Source: a virus
Taxonomy: Duplodnaviria; Caudoviricetes
IMG/VR virus record: IMGVR_UViG_3300030376_000208
Coordinates: 1 to 31,829 of that record
Direction: 5' to 3' (one strand)
DNA: 31,829 nt
In this document: in pieces, positions 2,357 to 25,267 of the stretch
Numbering within the stretch: position 1 is the first letter of the stretch
Layout of the letters: the number at the start of each line of letters is the position of its first letter
Program-made: the position numbers and the translations under genes
Notes under the pieces: generated by a model
Told to the model about the DNA's origin: nothing
Seen by the model: only the letters and a program-made list of their open reading frames with translations
Databases searched by the model: none

Positions 2357-3195
2357 AGTGCATACCATCTGTCTGAGTTCATTGCTTTAGCAATCTCATT
2401 CTCACGCAACCGACGAGCATTCTCTGGACTACCCAAGTGATCTGTATGTGTAGCCCACTCAGTCAATGTATTGTACAATGCCCATACATTGTTACCAATG
2501 TTGGCTCGATTGTTATCCCACATGCGTAATAGTTCTTCGCGTCTACGCATATTGAAATGTGGCTGTCCTAATTTACCACGTTGTTTTACTTTACAAAGCA
2601 TATCATTGATAAACATTTCTGCTGTTTCGTAACTAATTTTGGTATCAACATACTGTTTGAATAACACATCGTTTAGTTTGAATGCTTCGAAACCTGTTAA
2701 GATTTTAGCTGATGATGATACAACAGACACGTTAGTCGTATGTTTTGCCCAAGTCTTAGCTACAGTATTGGGTGTCGTGCAACCATTCAAACACCACAGT
2801 CTGAATGCTTCAGCCGATTGTTGGAATGCCCAACTAGCATCGTATGAATTGTAGAACTGAATACGAAACGTACATATGTCATCTACTACTGGTTCGATTT
2901 TCCAATCAGGAAAGTTAATCTCACCTCGTAGCTTACGACCACCATCAATGATGTGTATCTTTTCTTCGTATGCAGTACCAAGAGTATTAGCTACATCATC
3001 AATAGAATCCATGATACTATTGACTACATCACTGTGCGTAATGATCTTGTACTTGTCACCAAGTCCACGACTCATGTGTTCGCCAGTGTCAGTGCGAACA
3101 ACCACACGATTACCTTCGATCTTATTACCATGACGGTCATAAGTTTCTTGTAGTTCTACTGGGAAATCCCAAGTAGGATTAGTAAAGTCCAACAT
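2353..3195 (-). CDS. DUF932-family protein (phage/plasmid early gene)
   Basis: VVRTDTG..LG.KYKII, FYNSYDAS, RLWCLNG, KHT and WALYNTLTEWATH motifs. AAGGAG RBS. Confidence 0.85.
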   Translation of the reverse strand: MLDFTNPTWDFPVELQETYDRHGNKIEGNRVVVRTDTGEHMSRGLGDKYKIITHSDVVNSIMDSIDDVANTLGTAYEEKIHIIDGGRKLRGEINFPDWKIEPVVDDICTFRIQFYNSYDASWAFQQSAEAFRLWCLNGCTTPNTVAKTWAKHTTNVSVVSSSAKILTGFEAFKLNDVLFKQYVDTKISYETAEMFINDMLCKVKQRGKLGQPHFNMRRREELLRMWDNNRANIGNNVWALYNTLTEWATHTDHLGSPENARRLRENEIAKAMNSDRWYAL

Positions 3196-3205
3196 GTCTA
3201 ACTCC

Positions 3206-3295
3206 TTATGTTAATGCTGATATAAAAATAAATAGTAAACCAAATATGATAACAGCTTTTAATAGCTCTACCATAATATCAAATGCTTTTTTCAT
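3206..3295 (-). CDS. 29-aa single-pass membrane peptide
   Basis: MKKAFDIMVELLKAVIIFGLLFIFISALT with an AGGAGAG RBS. Not in the ORF track. Confidence 0.6.
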   Translation of the reverse strand: MKKAFDIMVELLKAVIIFGLLFIFISALT

Positions 3296-3369
3296 TCGCT
3301 ACTCTCCTATGTTGTAGCTGCGCCAAAGTTTGAATGCTGACGGGAAGTGATACCCCTCCCTGCACCCAC

Positions 3370-3398
3370 AAAAAAAGGGACAGCTTGGTAGCTGCCCC
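3370..3398 (-). terminator. Rho-independent terminator
   Basis: Minus strand reads GGGGCAGCT-ACCA-AGCTGTCCC followed by TTTTTTT, 15 nt after the 133-aa gene. Confidence 0.85.
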
Positions 3399-3412
3399 AA
3401 AGGGGTGGTGGC

Positions 3413-3814
3413 CTAAGCCACCTTTGCTTTGAGAAGAGCTAGTCTTTCTGAGGACATAGCTGGTTTCACTCGTCTTGGGGCAGGTTCCCAAGACTGTCCT
3501 GTTACTTGTTCGTAGACACTCAGGTCAGCTAGGTGACGCTCTTCAAGCAAGTTAAGCTCAACCTCGATGTTGTCTATCAGCTTTTGGATCGCATCTGCTT
3601 TGATTGTTTGTCCATTTTCCAGTGCTATCTCGTAGTCCGCTAACTTGTCAGCCAACATCTTCTTCTTGTAGACCAGTGAATTGTTTGAAGTGTAACATTC
3701 GTCTCTGGCAATGCCCGAAATAAATTGCTCGTTCGGTACAACATCCTGAGTAGAGTGAAAATAATCTAGAACTGCAAGTTTTCTTTCAACGAGTGTAAGT
3801 TGCTTCTTAGTCAT
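3413..3814 (-). CDS. Hypothetical 133-aa helical protein (C-terminal YEQVTGQSWEP motif)
   Basis: Start reassigned to ATG 3814 because of the AAGGAGA RBS at 3821-3827. Coiled-coil-like middle region. Confidence 0.8.
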   Translation of the reverse strand: MTKKQLTLVERKLAVLDYFHSTQDVVPNEQFISGIARDECYTSNNSLVYKKKMLADKLADYEIALENGQTIKADAIQKLIDNIEVELNLLEERHLADLSVYEQVTGQSWEPAPRRVKPAMSSERLALLKAKVA

Positions 3815-3836
3815 GTGTATTCTCCTTGTTTCATTT

Positions 3837-4041
3837 GCGAGGACCATCCTCGACACAGACCTTAACAAGACAACATGGAAAACCTGTCCACTGACAGGTT
3901 GTTATTCGCAACTTCTTCCCACACAAGTTGACCTAACCGCAACTAGACACAGCTATCGCAAGAGCACTCTAGCCAGTGCAAGAGGGAAGTTGTTGCGAAT
4001 GACTTTTCCCTGTTGTCAAGGTCTTTGACGAGGATGACCGC
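3837..4041. ncRNA. Large structured non-coding element (RNA or ssDNA fold), strand and function unresolved
   Basis: Six nested complementary segments plus three local hairpins (detailed in findings). Confidence 0.6.
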
Positions 4042-4165
4042 AGCTTGGAACAGGGGGAATACGCTATGATCTGAGACGCGACTGGAGTGAGGAAGGAAGA
4101 AAACTAGGCGGTCTAGATCCTTTGTAGTATGCTCCTCAGGTAGAAAGTTGTAGCGCACGTGCAAT

Positions 4166-4203
4166 TTGTGCGTTGACAGAGCTGTTATACTTCATGCTAT
4201 CAC
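4166..4203 (+). promoter_or_regulatory. Putative late promoter (TTGTGCGTTG motif, copy 1) upstream of terS
   Basis: TTGTGCGTTG at 4166-4175 overlaps TTGACA(4173-4178)-N17-GCTATCAC. Confidence 0.65.
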
Positions 4204-4253
4204 TGGGGGGAGAGAGGGAGAGGGGGGCTTTAGCGTGACTACAGGAGCACAAA

Positions 4254-4631
4254 ATGGTAAACATAGCAAAGCGCGATCTAACTGATAGACAGCGTCGATT
4301 GGTTGAAGCGTTTGTAGCAAATGGCGGCAACCTCACACAAGCTGCACATGAGGCAGGCTACGCTCAAGGCAATAGCGGTAGAGTTTCTGCATACAAGGCG
4401 ATGAAAACTGCACATGTGCGACAGTACTTGATGGAAGCAATGAGTGATGCATTTGGAATGAGTGCAGCTAAAGCACTGGGCAGAGTAGTGCAGTTATCAT
4501 CTGGTGCTAAGTCAGAGTACGTGCAGCTTGAAGCCTCGAAGGATCTGTTAGATCGTGCAGGGTTTAAGCCTATAGACCGCTCGCAGGTGCAGGTAGCTGG
4601 AGACATTAAAGTGTCAATCGACTTGACGTGA
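4254..4631 (+). CDS. terS: Terminase small subunit
   Basis: LTDRQRRLVEAFVANGGNLTQAAHEAGY HTH and a C-terminal ASKDLLDRAG motif. First late gene, with an AGGAG RBS. Confidence 0.85.
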   Translation: MVNIAKRDLTDRQRRLVEAFVANGGNLTQAAHEAGYAQGNSGRVSAYKAMKTAHVRQYLMEAMSDAFGMSAAKALGRVVQLSSGAKSEYVQLEASKDLLDRAGFKPIDRSQVQVAGDIKVSIDLT

Positions 4632-4710
4632 CGGGGGTGGGGTCAAAAACTGCGCGTTACTTAGTGACAGGGGTAACTCACTCACATTTTTTTCTAGAAA
4701 GGTACGCAAC

Positions 4711-4980
4711 ATGAGAAAGATACATATGAGTGCATCTGGTGGCTTGAGTCCAGAGGGTCGCAAATATTTTAAACGCAAAGAGGGTGCTAATTTAAAACCA
4801 CCTGTTCCAAAGGGTAAGAATCCAAGACGAGTTTCTTTTGCTGCTAGGTTTGGTGGGATGAAAGGACCAGAGAGAGATGAAAAGGGAGAGCCTACTAGAT
4901 TAGGGTTAGCATTAAAAAAGTGGGGATTCCGTTCTAAGGAATCGGCTAGAAGATTTGCAGCAAGGAATAAAAAGGCATGA
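4711..4980 (+). CDS. Basic phage protein (DUF6321-like)
   Basis: GGLSPEGRKYFKRKEGANLKPPV...RRVSFAARFGGM...TRLGLALKKW. Very K/R-rich. Confidence 0.7.
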   Translation: MRKIHMSASGGLSPEGRKYFKRKEGANLKPPVPKGKNPRRVSFAARFGGMKGPERDEKGEPTRLGLALKKWGFRSKESARRFAARNKKA

Positions 4981-8111: not shown

Positions 8112-8757
8112 CTGTTTTAAAAAGAAAGCTCAAAAAACTAGAGCAAAAAAAATTGTTAAGGGTAAGCCGCAAAGAGGTACAACTCGTACAGTAAGACCAG
8201 AACCTCGACCGGGGACTGCAAGTTTTGAAACTCTGCAAGCAAGGAATACTGCATACCAACAACAACAAAAAAATAAAGCTAGAAGAAAAAAGAAAGCTAA
8301 ACAAGCTGCTCTTAGAAATCAAACAACTACACCAACAACTACAACAACTACTACACCTACTACAACAACAACTACTACACCAACAACCACTACTACACTT
8401 GCTCCTGCAAATGATACAGTTACTACATCGGGTGGAGTTATTGGCGGCACATCAGTAACGCCAGAAAGTATTTACACACGTGATCCAGAAGAAGCTATAT
8501 CAGATCAAGAGAAACTGGCTCAAGAAGAACTAAGGCGACAAAGAATAAAACGAGCTAGAACAAAACAATCTTTGCTTAGAAAAAGATTAGAAAGAACTCA
8601 AGAAGTAGGTTCTGGTCGTAGAGTTTTGTCTGGATCTGAAAGAGAACTAAATGTACAGACTAGACAAGCAGGAACTGGTCGCAGAGGTGGGGCAGGTAGA
8701 AGATCTTTAATTACTGGTTCTACTGGTGGAATCGGATACTATAGTAGGTTCTTATGA
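8104..8757 (+). CDS. T7 gp7.3-like virion protein with a Thr/Pro-repeat linker
   Basis: Lies directly before the portal. Basic MG..KKK N-terminus and GRRSLITGSTGG C-terminus resemble the gp7.3 organisation. Confidence 0.55.
   Translation: MGSCFKKKAQKTRAKKIVKGKPQRGTTRTVRPEPRPGTASFETLQARNTAYQQQQKNKARRKKKAKQAALRNQTTTPTTTTTTTPTTTTTTTPTTTTTLAPANDTVTTSGGVIGGTSVTPESIYTRDPEEAISDQEKLAQEELRRQRIKRARTKQSLLRKRLERTQEVGSGRRVLSGSERELNVQTRQAGTGRRGGAGRRSLITGSTGGIGYYSRFL
8323..8397 (+). repeat. Degenerate 24-nt tandem repeat encoding (PT7)n
   Basis: TTT-P-TTTTTTT-P-TTTTTTT-P-TTTTT encoded by ACA/ACT/ACC runs. Confidence 0.9.
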
Positions 8758-11444: not shown

Positions 11445-12254
11445 ATGGCTAATACAATAGACCAAGCCTTTATAAAGCAGTTTGAAACTGAAGTTCACAT
11501 GGCGTATCAGCGTATGGGTTCCAAGCTACGGAACACTGTTCGCTCTACAAATGTGTCAGGTTCAACTGCACGATTCCAGAAAATAGGCACTGGATCAGCG
11601 TCAACAAAATCAAGAACTGGTAGTGTAACTCCTATGGAACTCGTACACACCAATGTCGAAGTATCAATGAGCGACTTCTACGCTGCTGAATTCATTGACA
11701 AGCTTGACGAGTTGAAAACAAATATCAATGAACGACAAGCTGTAACACAATCTGCGGCTGCTGCTCTTGGTAGAAAAACAGACGAGATTATCATTACTGC
11801 TATGGATGCAGGTGCTAACTCTACTCAAATACATGATACTAACTCTGCTCTTGCTAAAGCAGATCTTCTATCATTGTTTGAAACAATGGGTACGGCAGAT
11901 GTTCCAGAGGACGGACAACGCTATCTTGCGATGTCTCCTGCAGGTTATGCTGATTTGTTTTCTATCAATGAATTTGCATCATCAGACTTTGTTGGGCCGC
12001 AAAACCTACCATTTGCAGGTGGCATGACAATGAAAGAATTCTTGGGCTTCAAGATCTTTTCAACGTCTGCTGTAGCAGGTGGTAAGAACTTTGCTTACCA
12101 TACAAGTGCTATAGGTCTTGGTGTGAACTCTGATGTTCAAACTGAAGTAAACTATGTTGCTGAGAAAGTATCTCACTTAGCAACATCAATGATGTCAATG
12201 GGCGCGGTAGCTATCGATGATAACGGTATCTACGAAGTCCTAGACAATAACTAA
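11445..12254 (+). CDS. Major capsid protein
   Basis: MANTIDQAFIKQFETEVHMAYQRMGSKLRNTV and AAALGRKTDEIII. BPP-1/HTVC010P-type capsid sequence in the expected position. Confidence 0.93.
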   Translation: MANTIDQAFIKQFETEVHMAYQRMGSKLRNTVRSTNVSGSTARFQKIGTGSASTKSRTGSVTPMELVHTNVEVSMSDFYAAEFIDKLDELKTNINERQAVTQSAAAALGRKTDEIIITAMDAGANSTQIHDTNSALAKADLLSLFETMGTADVPEDGQRYLAMSPAGYADLFSINEFASSDFVGPQNLPFAGGMTMKEFLGFKIFSTSAVAGGKNFAYHTSAIGLGVNSDVQTEVNYVAEKVSHLATSMMSMGAVAIDDNGIYEVLDNN

Positions 12255-12268
12255 GAGGGGGATCTTAA

Positions 12269-12532
12269 ATGGCTTATTCTGCATCTGGTCTAACTCGTAT
12301 GGCAGGTGGTGGCGGTCATAACCTTTGGTTTTATGACTCAACCGATGCTATAACAGCAGTTCGCGTTTCTGGTTACTTTAATAACGCTGCAAGCATGTTG
12401 AATGTTGGCGACGCTATTTTTGTACTAGACAGTGATGCTCCTGCTCTCAGCATATCTCTTGTACTATCCAACAATGGTTCGGTAGTAGATATTGCTGATG
12501 GTACAGCTATCACCGTAAGCGATAGTGACTAA
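12269..12532 (+). CDS. Probable capsid decoration/cement protein
   Basis: Small beta-rich protein between capsid gene and terminator. Y.STD....V..SGYFN....L.VGD motif. Confidence 0.6.
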   Translation: MAYSASGLTRMAGGGGHNLWFYDSTDAITAVRVSGYFNNAASMLNVGDAIFVLDSDAPALSISLVLSNNGSVVDIADGTAITVSDSD

Positions 12533-13162: not shown

Positions 13163-15402
13163 TGCAAAAAGCACGAATACCAATTACAAACTTTCAATAT
13201 GGTGAGATAAGTCCGTCTTTGGTTTCGAGGACGGATTCGGCTATTTATAACTCTTCAGCACAAAGCATTAAAAACTTTTTTATTAGAACAGAAGGTGGTG
13301 TAGCTAAACGTGGTGGTTTTCAAGCATTACATGACTTTACAGCTATTACAGAAAACACTGCTATACGTCAGCAAATAAGACTTATACCATTTATATTTTC
13401 AGATGATGAACAATATATAATAGCATTTTCAAACCAGAAATGTGAAATCTTTTTTATAAATCCTGTAACAGGTGCATTAAGTTTAGCAACAACATTAACA
13501 CAAGATGTTGATGGAAATGCTTTGCAATGGGATCATTTGTATCTGCATGAAATGACTTATGCACAGGGCGGTGATATTCTTTTTGTTTGCCACAATACTT
13601 TTATGTGTCAACAAATAGTAAGAACTGGCCTTAATAGTTTTCAAGTAGAACAATTTAATTTTGTTTTACAAGCAGGTGGAGCTAAGATCTTTCAGCCTTA
13701 TTATCATTTTCATCCTACTGGCGTTACACTTGATCCATCTGCAAGCACAGGTAATTCTATTACTATAACAACTAGTGCGCCTTATTTTGATACTACTGGT
13801 AAACATGTTGGTATTACATTGTTATATCATGGTTCAGAAATATTTATAACTTCTGTTCAGTCTAGTACACAAGCAACTGGTAGAGTTGTTGATGAACTTT
13901 TTGTAGAGTTAGACCCTAATGCTGTTAGGACTACTGATGGTTCTACTAACTTAGAAATAACTCACATTAATCATGGCATGTCTAATGGTGATTCAATTAC
14001 TATACGAAATGCAACATCTGTTGGTGGTGTAAGTGCAGGTAATGTAAATGGCACTCGGTCAATAACAAGTGTGATTGATGAAAATAGATATATTGTTGCA
14101 GGTGGCGGTTCAGCTAATACATCTGAGGATGGTGGTGGATTTATACAGATTGTTACTCATGCACCTACTACTGAATGGATGGAGCAATCTTATTCTGAAT
14201 TAAGAGGCTATCCTGCTGCTGTTGGTTTCCATGAAAATAGACTTTGGTTTGGTGGTACGCTTTCTCAACCTGATACTGTTTGGGCAAGTAAGTCAGGATT
14301 GTTTTATAACTTTGATATTGGTACTGCTCAAGATGATGATGCTTTAGAACTTGTTATGAGTATTGGTGAAGTAGCTACTATACGTCATTTTGTTTCTAAT
14401 AGAGACATACATATCTTTACTGCAGGATCAGAGTTTTTTATTCCTACATTTGAAAATCAACCTATTACGCCTTCTAATGCTAGAGTAAAAAGACAAACAT
14501 CTTTTGGTTCTACTTTTGTAAGACCACAACCTTTCTATGGTGCTACAATCTTTGGTCAGATTGGCGGCAAGATGATACGTCAGTTTGTATTTGATGATAG
14601 TGAGCAAGCTTACAAAGCCGATCCAATTTCTTTGCTTTCTTCTCATTTGATAAGCGATCCAGTTCAGATGTGTGTAATTAGTGGCGCGGTAAACACAGCC
14701 GAGTCATTTGTATTTGCTCAGAACTTTACTGGTGAGATAGCTGTTTATAATCTTAATAGAGTTGAGGGTGTTGCAGGTTGGACAAGGTTTGAAACAAATG
14801 GTTCTTTTCATTCTGTTACTGCTATTGGTAACAGGGTTTTTGCTGTTATTAAAACCAATCTTGGATCTGGTACAAATAGTTTTGTATTCACTGAATTAAA
14901 TCAAAATGTAAGTTTAGATCTTGGTAATACATACTCAGGAAGCAATGGTGTTTTTACTGTGTCAAACTTTTTTGAAAATGGCGCAAAGGTAGATGTAATA
15001 AGTGCTACAGACTACTTAGGTGAGTTTACAGTAGCTAATGGTCAGATTGATGTTTCGTCTGTAGACGCTTCTCTCTCAAGCTGTCAGGTAGGTTTTGGTT
15101 TTGATGTAGAGTTAAAGACTAATCCTATAGATGTTAATACTGCAATCGGTCCAGAAACAGGACAGCCTAGAAGTTTAAGTAGAGTTATACTTGATATGTC
15201 TGAAACATTATCTGTATCAGTAAATAATAAGAAACTAATTATAAGAAAAGTAAACAATGACTTCAGCCAACCAAGACAGGCAGTCACAGGTAAACGAGAG
15301 TTTTATTTACTTGGATACAATAAAGATCCACAGGTAACAGTTACACAAACTGCACCTATGTTTATTCAAGTTAATGGTTTAGTTGCAGAGGTATCTTTCT
15401 AA
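13162..15402 (+). CDS. Tail tubular protein B / nozzle (T7 gp12-like)
   Basis: NFQYGEISP, GGVAKRGG, GYPAAVGFHENRLWFGG and VAGWTR motifs. Confidence 0.9.
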   Translation: MQKARIPITNFQYGEISPSLVSRTDSAIYNSSAQSIKNFFIRTEGGVAKRGGFQALHDFTAITENTAIRQQIRLIPFIFSDDEQYIIAFSNQKCEIFFINPVTGALSLATTLTQDVDGNALQWDHLYLHEMTYAQGGDILFVCHNTFMCQQIVRTGLNSFQVEQFNFVLQAGGAKIFQPYYHFHPTGVTLDPSASTGNSITITTSAPYFDTTGKHVGITLLYHGSEIFITSVQSSTQATGRVVDELFVELDPNAVRTTDGSTNLEITHINHGMSNGDSITIRNATSVGGVSAGNVNGTRSITSVIDENRYIVAGGGSANTSEDGGGFIQIVTHAPTTEWMEQSYSELRGYPAAVGFHENRLWFGGTLSQPDTVWASKSGLFYNFDIGTAQDDDALELVMSIGEVATIRHFVSNRDIHIFTAGSEFFIPTFENQPITPSNARVKRQTSFGSTFVRPQPFYGATIFGQIGGKMIRQFVFDDSEQAYKADPISLLSSHLISDPVQMCVISGAVNTAESFVFAQNFTGEIAVYNLNRVEGVAGWTRFETNGSFHSVTAIGNRVFAVIKTNLGSGTNSFVFTELNQNVSLDLGNTYSGSNGVFTVSNFFENGAKVDVISATDYLGEFTVANGQIDVSSVDASLSSCQVGFGFDVELKTNPIDVNTAIGPETGQPRSLSRVILDMSETLSVSVNNKKLIIRKVNNDFSQPRQAVTGKREFYLLGYNKDPQVTVTQTAPMFIQVNGLVAEVSF

Positions 15403-22951: not shown

Positions 22952-25267
22952 ATGACAATTAACATTGCAGACAATTCACCGCGTATTTCTTACACCGTAG
23001 CACAAGGAGCAACACAAACAAGTTTTGCAGTACCGTTTGAATTTTTTGACAATGCGGATCTAAACGTATTTATAAATGGCGCATTACAAACAATTACTAA
23101 TAACTACACTGTTTCGGGTGGCGATGGTTCTACTGGTACTATTTCTATGTCTGTCACAGGTGGCTCTGGTGGGTCTACTGTTGTCATTACTCGTAATATA
23201 ACTCTTGAACGAACAACTGACTTTCCTGTTTCTGGTGCTTTTAACATTGTTGCTCTTAATACAGAGCTTGACAGACTTGTAGCTATCTCTGCTGATTTGC
23301 AAGACCAAGCTAATCGTGCATTGCAACTTACTGATTTTGATGCTGCGGTGTCGCTCGTCCTCCCCGTTGTTGACACTCGTAAAGGAAAGACGCTCGCTTT
23401 CAATGCATCAACTGGCGCGGTAGAAGCAGGTCCAAGCATTAGTGATGTTCAAGCTGTTTCTGCTGCGTCTACAGACATAGCATTACTAGCTGATATACAA
23501 GACGGAACTACGGCAACTAATGCGATAACTATTGCTGCAAGTAATAATGCAAACATTTCTACAGTTGCAGGAGTATCTGGGAATGTAACAACAGTAGCAG
23601 GAATTAGTGCAAACGTAACAACAGTAGCAGGTATAGCATCTAATGTTACTACAGTTGCAGGAGATACAACGCATATACAAGCATTAGGACCAGTAAGCGC
23701 AAACATAACTACGGTTGCAGGAGCAGTTAATAATGTAAATACGGTTGCTACAAACATTGCTAGTGTTAATACAGTAGCTACAAATATTGCTGATGTAGTT
23801 GCTGTTGCTGCTGATCTTGCTGAAACAGTATCTGAAATAGAAACGGTAGCTAATGATCTTAATGAGTCAACTTCTGAGATTGACACTGTTGCTCAAAACA
23901 TAGCCAACGTAAATAATGTTGGTAATAATATTAGCAATGTAAATACAGTAGCTTCTAACAACTCTAATATTAATGCTGTTGCTGCTGACGCTACTGACAT
24001 TGGAACAGTTGCTTCAAATATATCTAATGTAAATGCAGTTGGTGGTGTATCAGCAAATGTAACTACTGTTGCAGGTATAGCTTCTGATGTTACTGCTGTT
24101 GCAAATATACAGAGTAACATTTCTACTATTGCTCAATCAGCCGCTACAACAAATATTAATACAGTAGCTACAGATATATCTGGTTCTAATAATATTGGTG
24201 CTGTTGCTGCAGCAATTACTAATGTAAATAATGTTGGTGGTTCAATAGCTAATGTAAATACTGTTGCTACTAATCTTACATCAGTTAATCAGTTTAGTAA
24301 TCAATATGTAATAAGTGCTAATGCACCTAGCAGTCCTAATGATGGTTTGCTTTGGTTTGATACATCTTCAGATACTATGAAAGTTTATAATGGTTCTAGT
24401 TTTCAGAACGCTGGATCAAGCGTTAATGGCACAACAAACAGAGTAAACTATGTGGTTGGAACTAACTCTGGTTCTTACAATGGGTCTACTACTGTATTTC
24501 CTGCAACTTATGACGCAGGTTTCTTAGATGTATTTTTAAATGGTGTTCGTTTAGATCCTGCTGATTTTACTGCAACAAACGGAACATCCGTTACATTAGG
24601 TAGTGCAGCAACTTCTGGTGATACACTTAGCGTTGTTGGATATGGTACTTTTATTTTAGCAGATCATTATAGCAAAACACAGTCTGACGCTCGATACTTA
24701 CAACTGTCTGGTGGCACTGCTACTGGCGATCTTAATATGGGGTCGAATGATGTAATTACTACTGGCAAAGTATTATTTGCTAACTTGTATTCGCAATTAT
24801 CTGATCTTCCTTCTGCTAGTACTTATCATGGAATGTTTGCACACGTCCATAATACTGGAAAATTTTATGGTAGCCATGCAGGTCAGTGGTTACCGCTAGT
24901 CAATTCGGACACAAGCGGCAATGTAGTTATCTCAGGCAACCTTACAGTCTCAGGCACTACAACCACTGTGAACAGTACAACGCTAAATGTTGCTGATAAG
25001 AACATTACGATAGCTAATGGTGCGGCTGATGCGGCTGCTGCTGACGGTGCTGGTCTTACAGTAGATGGGGCTAGTGCAACTATTCTCTACACAGCATCAG
25101 GTGACAAGTGGGCGTTTAACAAACCCATAGCGTTGGGTGGTTGGACGATAACCGAAACTGGTGGGTCACTCTACTTTGCAACTGGTGGTGTGAATAAGAT
25201 GAAGTTGGACGCAAGCGGCAATCTCGATGTCGTTGGCTCAGTCAATTCTAATGCAACGATTAGCTAA
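22952..25267 (+). CDS. Tail fibre protein with a T7 gp17-like N-terminal anchor
   Basis: TSFAVPFEFFDNADLNVFING...ITRN..LERTTDF...LNTELDRL, followed by repeated NVTTVA/NINTVA units and modular fibre domains. Confidence 0.9.
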   Translation: MTINIADNSPRISYTVAQGATQTSFAVPFEFFDNADLNVFINGALQTITNNYTVSGGDGSTGTISMSVTGGSGGSTVVITRNITLERTTDFPVSGAFNIVALNTELDRLVAISADLQDQANRALQLTDFDAAVSLVLPVVDTRKGKTLAFNASTGAVEAGPSISDVQAVSAASTDIALLADIQDGTTATNAITIAASNNANISTVAGVSGNVTTVAGISANVTTVAGIASNVTTVAGDTTHIQALGPVSANITTVAGAVNNVNTVATNIASVNTVATNIADVVAVAADLAETVSEIETVANDLNESTSEIDTVAQNIANVNNVGNNISNVNTVASNNSNINAVAADATDIGTVASNISNVNAVGGVSANVTTVAGIASDVTAVANIQSNISTIAQSAATTNINTVATDISGSNNIGAVAAAITNVNNVGGSIANVNTVATNLTSVNQFSNQYVISANAPSSPNDGLLWFDTSSDTMKVYNGSSFQNAGSSVNGTTNRVNYVVGTNSGSYNGSTTVFPATYDAGFLDVFLNGVRLDPADFTATNGTSVTLGSAATSGDTLSVVGYGTFILADHYSKTQSDARYLQLSGGTATGDLNMGSNDVITTGKVLFANLYSQLSDLPSASTYHGMFAHVHNTGKFYGSHAGQWLPLVNSDTSGNVVISGNLTVSGTTTTVNSTTLNVADKNITIANGAADAAAADGAGLTVDGASATILYTASGDKWAFNKPIALGGWTITETGGSLYFATGGVNKMKLDASGNLDVVGSVNSNATIS
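23550..24290 (+). repeat. Degenerate ~10-aa (N[VI]xxVAxxxx) repeats forming the fibre shaft
   Basis: NISTVAGVSG NVTTVAGISA NVTTVAGIAS NVTTVAG and many further degenerate units. Boundaries approximate. Confidence 0.8.

Follow-up and report, generated by a model that had tools for sequence, protein, structure and literature searches.

Genomic setting of the element

The window, which here means the whole 31,829-nt stretch of DNA that was analysed, is by its gene content a near-complete podovirus genome. Genes for terminase, portal, capsid, tail, internal virion proteins and endolysin are read rightwards from position 4254, and an operon including DUF932, HTH proteins, a resolvase and an O-like initiator is read leftwards from position 3814. 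A large fold-back structure, hereafter the rod, lies between these two sets of genes. The main features of the locus are as follows.

3377..3398, minus strand: intrinsic-terminator-like site directly after the 133-aa gene, from a pattern scan
3413..3814, minus strand: first leftward gene, encoding a 133-aa protein predicted to be an all-helical hairpin; the predicted output of the promoter
3822..3827, minus strand: Shine-Dalgarno sequence AAGGAG, which belongs to the 133-aa gene and lies in the basal stem of the rod
3812..4068, plus strand: whole fold-back rod, 257 nt, on the template strand of the 133-aa gene, with terminal pair C3812-G4068, from the DNA fold and covariation
4173..4203, plus strand: ordinary terS promoter-like site, TTGACA ... 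TG-C-TATCAC, conserved across the family
4254..4631, plus strand: terminase small subunit gene (terS), divergent, the fixed neighbour of the rod

The closest cultured relative was Pelagibacter phage EXVC031P Hodr (OQ414635; TerL 65%, TerS 47%), which has the same divergent gene layout and on which no paper was found in the literature. DNA similarity of the window to cultured phages was limited to chance matches. Kinship with Hodr, together with the promoter grammar described below, suggests that the host of the window phage is an alphaproteobacterium. Approximately 3,100 IMG/VR stretches match the terS patterns of this abundant family of podoviruses from the sea. The single match in GTDB was a 15-kb contig (L253, PBGS01000047.1) from a family phage with the same element, which was found in a MAG labelled Methanobacteriota, probably as a result of mis-binning or binning carry-over.

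An ArdC-type anti-restriction protein, unannotated in the record, is encoded at 13573-14457 of the Hodr sequence (L081 4510-5394, minus strand). It lies further down the early operon of this SAR11 phage, in the place occupied by DUF932 in the window. Two repeats in the window appeared ordinary: a Thr-rich repeat in a 217-aa ORF (8301-8426, plus strand) and 30-nt coding repeats in the tail fibre (23522-24282, plus strand).

Structure and extent of the rod

The original prediction placed a multi-branched structured element of approximately 205 nt at positions 3837-4041. All nine of its helices were found where they had been described (8/8, 7/7, 7/7, 6/6, 11/12 with one G.T, 6/6, 8/8, 5/5 and 5/5 Watson-Crick pairs), and the structure is real, but it extends further, from 3812 to 4068. 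A DNA fold of 3809-4072 gave -63.9 kcal/mol, and the basal stem covers both the Shine-Dalgarno sequence and the start codon of the 133-aa gene. The two predicted apical hairpins are present, with 5/5 pairs each, but they are not conserved in relatives. The rod is divided as follows.

3812..3920, plus strand: 5' arm, the predicted template arm (read 3' to 5', leftwards into the gene), from the pair table and polarity
3864..3868, plus strand: 5-nt unpaired bulge on the template arm beside the -12/-11 step, from the fold and the L001 alignment
3881..3900, plus strand: side hairpin on the template arm, 8/8 pairs, an insert between the predicted -35 and -10
3921..3983, plus strand: apical domain, unconserved, differing in both length and sequence among relatives
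3984..4068, plus strand: 3' arm, the predicted non-template arm with the promoter boxes

Comparison with shuffled sequences had been proposed as a check on the fold, and the folding of 3837-4041 surpassed every one of 200 dinucleotide shuffles in each of four modes, with z of -9.56 (RNA, plus strand), -7.01 (RNA, minus strand), -9.67 (DNA, plus strand) and -7.74 (DNA, minus strand). No other strong inverted-repeat peak occurs in the window; the rod scores 80.5, against 40 at the 99th percentile. Public DNA contigs span it (X5 covers 3038-4886), so it is not an assembly artefact. Rfam covariance models gave 0 matches at gathering score in the window and 12 relatives, the best E-value being 2.4 and lying outside the rod, so that no known family was matched, in agreement with the novelty first proposed. 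Six rod motifs were likewise absent from 6 supplements of PMC10690425, which concerns candidate structured RNAs in IMG/VR; a piece of the rod may stand in other files.

Conservation in related phages

A search with the 133-aa protein family gave 121 loci, of which 80 were kept. At 73 of the 80, terS is divergent and lies 333-680 nt away, and the other seven hold only 126-502 nt of upstream DNA. Another 170 loci were added, 160 anchored on terS and 10 on the first gene of Hodr. Enough upstream DNA was available at 215 loci and a first leftward gene at 209 (6 dropped; the start was set by hand in 18), and these 209 loci formed 87 DNA clusters. A rod, taken as at least 25 long-range Watson-Crick pairs, was present in 72 of the 87 clusters, including Hodr, and this test failed in 15. 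A z of -4 or lower was obtained in 71 of the 87 with 8 shuffles each. The Hodr rod lies at approximately 12190-12385 of OQ414635; its gap of 351 nt gave z of -7.7 and -8.4, the other strand folding slightly better. The part of MEP301 that was examined, 14.2 of 34.8 kb, showed no rod.

Rods of the podovirus family are 180-270 nt long and single-copy: 74 of the 76 inverted-repeat peaks at the 87 loci fell within the gap between terS and the first gene, and 14 loci had no peak at the threshold. The rod is kept even where the first gene belongs to another family, which indicates that it follows position. The apical domain ranges in relatives from a few bases to more than 100. Insertions of approximately 45 nt were seen in this domain of L004 and L067 relative to their close relatives, with the stem intact.

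In an alignment of 21 hand-picked copies, 23 of 31 consensus pairs had two-sided changes, and none of 500 shuffles scored as high, which bears out the expected covariation in relatives. The proportion of paired cells in this alignment was 92.6%, compared with 39-55% in slid controls. The paired segment TTGC/GCAA was invariant in 21 of 21 rows, with variation at neighbouring positions.

Strand of the fold

Polarity was assessed by Watson-Crick-only folding, in which the pairs common to both strands were kept and small symmetric mismatches were typed. On the plus (template) strand, G.T exceeded A.C mismatches 69:6 in the 72 rods (36 versus 3 clusters). The ratio on the window's plus strand was 40:7 over 19 clusters (15 versus 2 clusters; L054 and L078 too short), and the Hodr rod alone gave 0:0. 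A looser, composition-corrected test of all aligned mismatches was much weaker than the strict test, with 276:174 against an expected share of 0.52 (47 versus 21 clusters; p 1e-4, this and the other p-values here being optimistic given that the clusters are related). As a control, the small hairpin before the ribosome site was biased in the opposite direction, with G.U on the mRNA strand 7:1 at internal positions and 22:6 at the loop (36 subfamilies). At the level of the family, the folding strand is the template strand of the first gene; the original prediction had left polarity unresolved.

The types of loop were also counted in the 87 clusters. C-GNA-G loops occurred 46 times on the template strand and 10 times on the mRNA strand (shuffles 20.0 and 15.4), and GCGAAGC occurred 12 times and 0 times (shuffle 1.4). 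Mini-hairpins of the GCGNAGC type are extraordinarily stable in DNA and much less so in RNA, and have been found at phage and plasmid priming sites and at N4 promoters (PMC13037366). GNRA loops were evenly distributed (47 versus 46) and below shuffles. The RNA-type loop cUNCGg was found 12 times on the mRNA strand where 4.9 were expected, and 3 times with longer stems where 1.1 were expected. The window's own rod has no GNA loop.

Two of the three options first proposed for the element are disfavoured by these results. One was a structured 5' leader of the 133-aa mRNA, transcribed from an upstream promoter and hiding the ribosome site for translational control. Such a leader would suit a rod that ends on the Shine-Dalgarno sequence and start codon, a minus strand that also folds well (z -7.0), and the slight enrichment of cUNCGg on that strand. 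With the wobbles on the template strand, however, an mRNA leader is disfavoured: the conserved wobbles become A.C mismatches on the minus strand (69 versus 6), and such a leader gives no reason for the bubble, for the TG-n-nA with its promoter spacing or for the paired TTGC that never varies. We regard it as highly improbable.

The other was a non-coding RNA, which on the present polarity would be a structured plus-strand RNA, either antisense or a 6S-like promoter mimic that binds host polymerase. 6S RNA imitates an open promoter by means of a bubble inside a rod-like stem, and the rod has a similar stem-bubble-stem shape; its G.U polarity fits RNA as well as DNA. Unlike 6S RNA, the rod has no Rfam match, carries DNA-type loops and a sequence-specific -35 and TG, and is attached to the start of a gene. 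On the plus strand GNRA and UNCG loops are not enriched, whereas DNA-type loops are. A pattern scan detected neither a promoter pointing rightwards from within the 133-aa gene nor a terminator beyond 4068, and the opposite-polarity hairpin at the predicted mRNA start would have no explanation. A plus-strand RNA is in our judgement very unlikely.

Predicted promoter boxes on the 3' arm

The 3' arm and the adjoining template arm contain the following predicted promoter features.

3838..3852, minus strand: small covarying hairpin with which the predicted mRNA begins; G.U on the mRNA strand in relatives
3852..3855, minus strand: predicted transcription start, opposite 4027-4029, with an A3853.A4028 mismatch, placed from the -10 position
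3993..3998, plus strand: predicted -35, TTGCGA, pairing with 3906-3911; paired in 37-38 of 38 subfamilies
4014..4022, plus strand: predicted extended -10, with TG at 4014-4015, CAAGGT at 4017-4022 and -11A at 4018; spacer 18

For the comparison of boxes, the loci were divided into 118 finer clusters, 42 of which had a paired TTGCR-type anchor. Four of these were dropped (two mis-anchored and two with longer leaders) and two were re-anchored, leaving 38 subfamilies. Because we chose the anchors TTGC and TG..A ourselves, some of their invariance is built in, which does not apply to their spacing or pairing state. The clade of the window has a paired TTGCRA -35 and a paired TG on the 3' arm, followed by -11A and a mismatch bubble that extends to +2. 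The arrangement TG-n-nA at a spacer of 17-19 was found in 30 of the 38 subfamilies, compared with a mean of 2.8 and a maximum of 8 in 1,000 shuffles. The -10 hexamer is far from TATAAT, with -12T in 1/30 and -7T in 4/30; the rarity of -7T fits alphaproteobacterial promoters, most of which are without it (PMC8407463).

The TG was paired in 30/30 subfamilies and -11A in 13/30. Pairing was 30% at -7, 20% at -1 and 20-63% from -9 to +2, and it returned to 97% at +4 to +6. This pattern follows an open complex, and in the window's subfamily the opened region takes the form of the bulge at 3864-3868. The window copy has a smaller bubble than most, with -11A paired, and is without the C-purine step that lies 0-3 nt before the mRNA hairpin in 33 of the 38 subfamilies. 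From TTGC to the mRNA hairpin (mis-picked by the script in L044 and L074) the distance was 36.8 +/- 2.1 nt on the 3' arm and 54.8 +/- 3.3 nt on the mRNA strand, which is longer because the template arm carries the side hairpin. The net insert of the side hairpin is 11-23 nt in 38 of 38 subfamilies, and 23 nt in the window including the 5-nt bulge.

Outside this clade, the best sigma-70-like score of 46 rods lay on the 3' arm, by a small margin (13.5 versus 12.6-12.8, p 3e-4 to 1.5e-3). The 3' arm of L217 is near consensus (TTGTAA-17-TATAAC). A mirror arrangement was observed in L194 and L198, where the side hairpin separates the boxes of the 3' arm (8 + 9 nt = 17 looped out). The mRNA strand of these two has an intact promoter, so the rod there need not be single-strand-specific.

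A third option in the original prediction was an Frpo-like single-stranded-DNA promoter or priming signal. It is the best supported of the three, but the two reasons given for it fail. One was a minus-strand TTGACA at 4019-4014; this sequence exists, but it is not a -35, since no -10-like hexamer follows and it is not conserved, and it is the complement of the plus-strand extended -10 (TG-T-CAA). The other was DUF932, as a gene of plasmid leading regions; the gene is real, but it stands behind the terminator-like site that follows the 133-aa gene, and DUF932 is not mentioned in the main text of PMC11541004.

The region between the rod and terS

The terS promoter-like site provides an internal reference for the host's promoter grammar. 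Its spacer is 19 nt in the window's clade and 17-18 nt in Hodr-like phages. The presence of this site bears on another explanation, in which an ordinary duplex promoter on the 3' arm would fire rightwards to terS, and the rod would be either a by-product or a signal for packaging or the terminus. The 3' arm does form a continuous -35/extended -10 on the plus strand of duplex DNA, the boxes are near consensus in some relatives (e.g. L217), and the rod always adjoins terS. However, terS has its own conserved promoter-like site, and a rightward promoter would account neither for the covarying pairing and the strand bias nor for the placement of the bubble and the side hairpin; we find it very doubtful.

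Directly behind the terS promoter-like site is a G6-AGAGAGGGAGA-G6 tract (4205-4227, plus strand), and GGGGGGA was present in the gap in 51 of the 87 clusters. This tract is a candidate packaging site, R-loop or G-quadruplex element. Between the rod and the terS promoter, TTGTAGTA occurs at 4122-4129 (plus strand) and is often repeated in relatives (14 of the 87 clusters). It was considered as a genome-wide nick motif and this was not supported, as the window has one copy per strand. In L049, L056 and L066 a repeated palindrome, TGACG-CTA-CGTCA, stands between the rod and terS and is possibly an operator.

In phage P22 the pac site lies within terS (PMC9611059). A search for a genome end near terS found contig ends scattered across a range of hundreds of bases, without a common base or a pile-up.

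The first leftward gene

No match to the 133-aa protein was found in cultured phages, Pfam or PHROGs, and members of its family gave only weak NCBIfam matches (E 0.02 or worse). The structural model is a generic helical hairpin (pLDDT 86.6); it had no match in the PDB at E 0.001 or better, matched only uncharacterised phage proteins in BFVD, and gave nothing usable in the Atlas. The anti-CRISPR AcrIIA32 (8YE6_B) was considered as a relative on a profile E of 0.011 and rejected as a coiled-coil match, being absent from the Foldseek results. Homology to the first gene of Hodr was not established (probability 1.9%). By analogy with plasmid leading regions (PMC11541004), we would guess at an anti-defence role for this protein.

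By a crude test, 33 of 71 clusters have a T-tract behind the first gene, in several cases with TTGACA just beyond it. These T-tracts, with the terminator-like site of the window, point to the first gene as the main output of the rod, which therefore probably serves mainly one gene and not DUF932. A 29-aa hydrophobic ORF with a ribosome site was noted between the terminator and DUF932 (3206-3295, minus strand). As to expression, just two contigs, both short, overlap the 133-aa gene, X18 at 3547-3733 and X20, which is probably DNA, at 3597-3820; neither covers the rod, and such contigs are blind to strand and start.

Proposed mechanism

Taken together, we consider it probable that the rod is an Frpo-like single-stranded-DNA promoter for the first gene, read by host sigma-70 RNA polymerase only while the plus strand is unpaired. 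Pairing of the two arms would build a duplex -35 (TTGCGA) and an extended -10 TG, and looping out of the side hairpin would set the -35 approximately 36 nt from the start point. The mismatches from -11 to +2 would pre-open the bubble and so offset the weak -10. Polymerase would then copy the 5' arm leftwards from approximately 3853, giving an mRNA that begins with its own small hairpin and is without the distal arm, which would leave the ribosome site free. In duplex DNA the boxes on the mRNA strand would be approximately 18 nt too far apart and the gene would be off. The terminator-like site would restrict output mainly to the 133-aa gene.

Tailed phages are generally held to deliver duplex DNA, and this counts against a promoter that needs a single strand. 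The last-packaged end of phage DNA usually leaves first. The route that we prefer for the single strand is one in which a host nuclease or a YqaJ/RecE-like exonuclease of the phage would resect 5' to 3' from a DNA end near terS, on the right of the rod, so that the plus strand would remain as a 3' tail. A YqaJ/RecE-like exonuclease and a protein with weak resemblance to Rad52 are encoded by G001, a relative with a complete genome. Strand-displacement replication and supercoil-assisted extrusion are alternative routes. By a rough estimate, extrusion would cost 165-235 kcal/mol and gain 129-170 kcal/mol at sigma -0.06 or 196-261 kcal/mol at sigma -0.09, and would thus be unfavourable at the former and favourable at the latter.

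With strand displacement the rod would also serve in priming, and it might be mainly a single-strand origin, at which polymerase primes the minus strand on a displaced plus strand, with the origin possibly near the G-tract at 4205-4227. This would be compatible with a single-stranded-DNA promoter and would use the same fold and the same polymerase. The single copy and fixed place of the rod agree with priming, as does conservation of the G-tract after the terS promoter (51/87 clusters); single-stranded-DNA promoters have been proposed to prime too (PMC12672017), and GNA mini-hairpins occur at phage and plasmid priming sites (PMC13037366). On the other hand, the predicted start goes together with a Shine-Dalgarno sequence and with a covarying mRNA hairpin that lies 37-48 nt upstream of the start codon, neither of which priming alone would require, and the phages encode an O-like initiator, with no HUH or rolling-circle Rep among the proteins scanned. 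A role mainly in priming, whether alone or alongside the promoter, seems to us unlikely.

Comparison with known systems

The design of the rod, read as a single-stranded-DNA promoter, matches that of the Frpo and ssi promoters of conjugative plasmids (PMC9849209, PMC12672017). In both, a large stem-loop lies directly upstream of a gene on its template strand, -35 and -10 boxes are rebuilt by folding at promoter spacing, and the rod, like Frpo/ssi, is predicted to be off in duplex DNA. The differences lie in sequence and context. The rod is in a podovirus genome, among terminase, portal, capsid, tail and internal virion genes, and not in a conjugative leading region, and the phages that carry it are without known single-strand transfer. 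There is one copy per genome, beside terS, where Frpo/ssi have several. Its boxes are TTGCRA with an extended TG and -11A, mostly without -7T, whereas those of Frpo/ssi are the canonical TTGACA/TATAAT, and it has a side hairpin as a spacing break. A search of 72,556 plasmids gave no DNA similarity to the rod beyond a 35-nt chance match. By this analogy the rod would work like an Frpo, yet it is no Frpo.

The early hairpin promoters of phage N4 are likewise found in a tailed dsDNA phage, as template-strand hairpins with GNA-type loops (PMC13434306, PMC13037366). Each has a stem of 5 bp and a loop of 3 bases and is transcribed, after supercoil extrusion, by a T7-like virion polymerase of 3,500 residues (PMC13434306), whereas the rod is 180-270 nt long (257 nt in the window) and has sigma-70-type boxes. 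No RNA polymerase family was matched among the virion proteins scanned, and the largest ORF has 1,308 aa.

The M13 minus origin and the ssoA of rolling-circle plasmids are imperfect, single-copy fold-backs that are used by host polymerase on one strand only. The rod is also an imperfect single-copy fold-back; unlike these origins, it is coupled to a ribosome site and a gene, and no rolling-circle initiator was found in the podoviruses scanned.

In the literature searched, host-polymerase promoters on single-stranded DNA were described only for plasmids and conjugative elements, with none for tailed phages, and the only phage hairpin promoters were those of N4 that are read by its virion polymerase.

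Implications

Promoters from which host polymerase starts only on single-stranded DNA have so far been shown on conjugative plasmids, for which a single-stranded stage is established. A more speculative possibility, which we hold only tentatively, is that this phage family has a plasmid-like leading region, in which the terS-side end enters first and is made single-stranded on one strand, through nuclease attack or by design. The rod would then give immediate expression of one protective gene, and would amount to a promoter that senses end resection and is independent in sequence of plasmid Frpo. This could be tested in Hodr, a cultured SAR11 phage. If the rod does act as a single-stranded-DNA promoter, dsDNA tailed phages would pass through an unrecognised single-stranded or extruded state, and one uncharacterised gene would be singled out as needed in that state. 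Both halves of this implication are directly testable with cultured Hodr and a 260-mer that can be synthesized.
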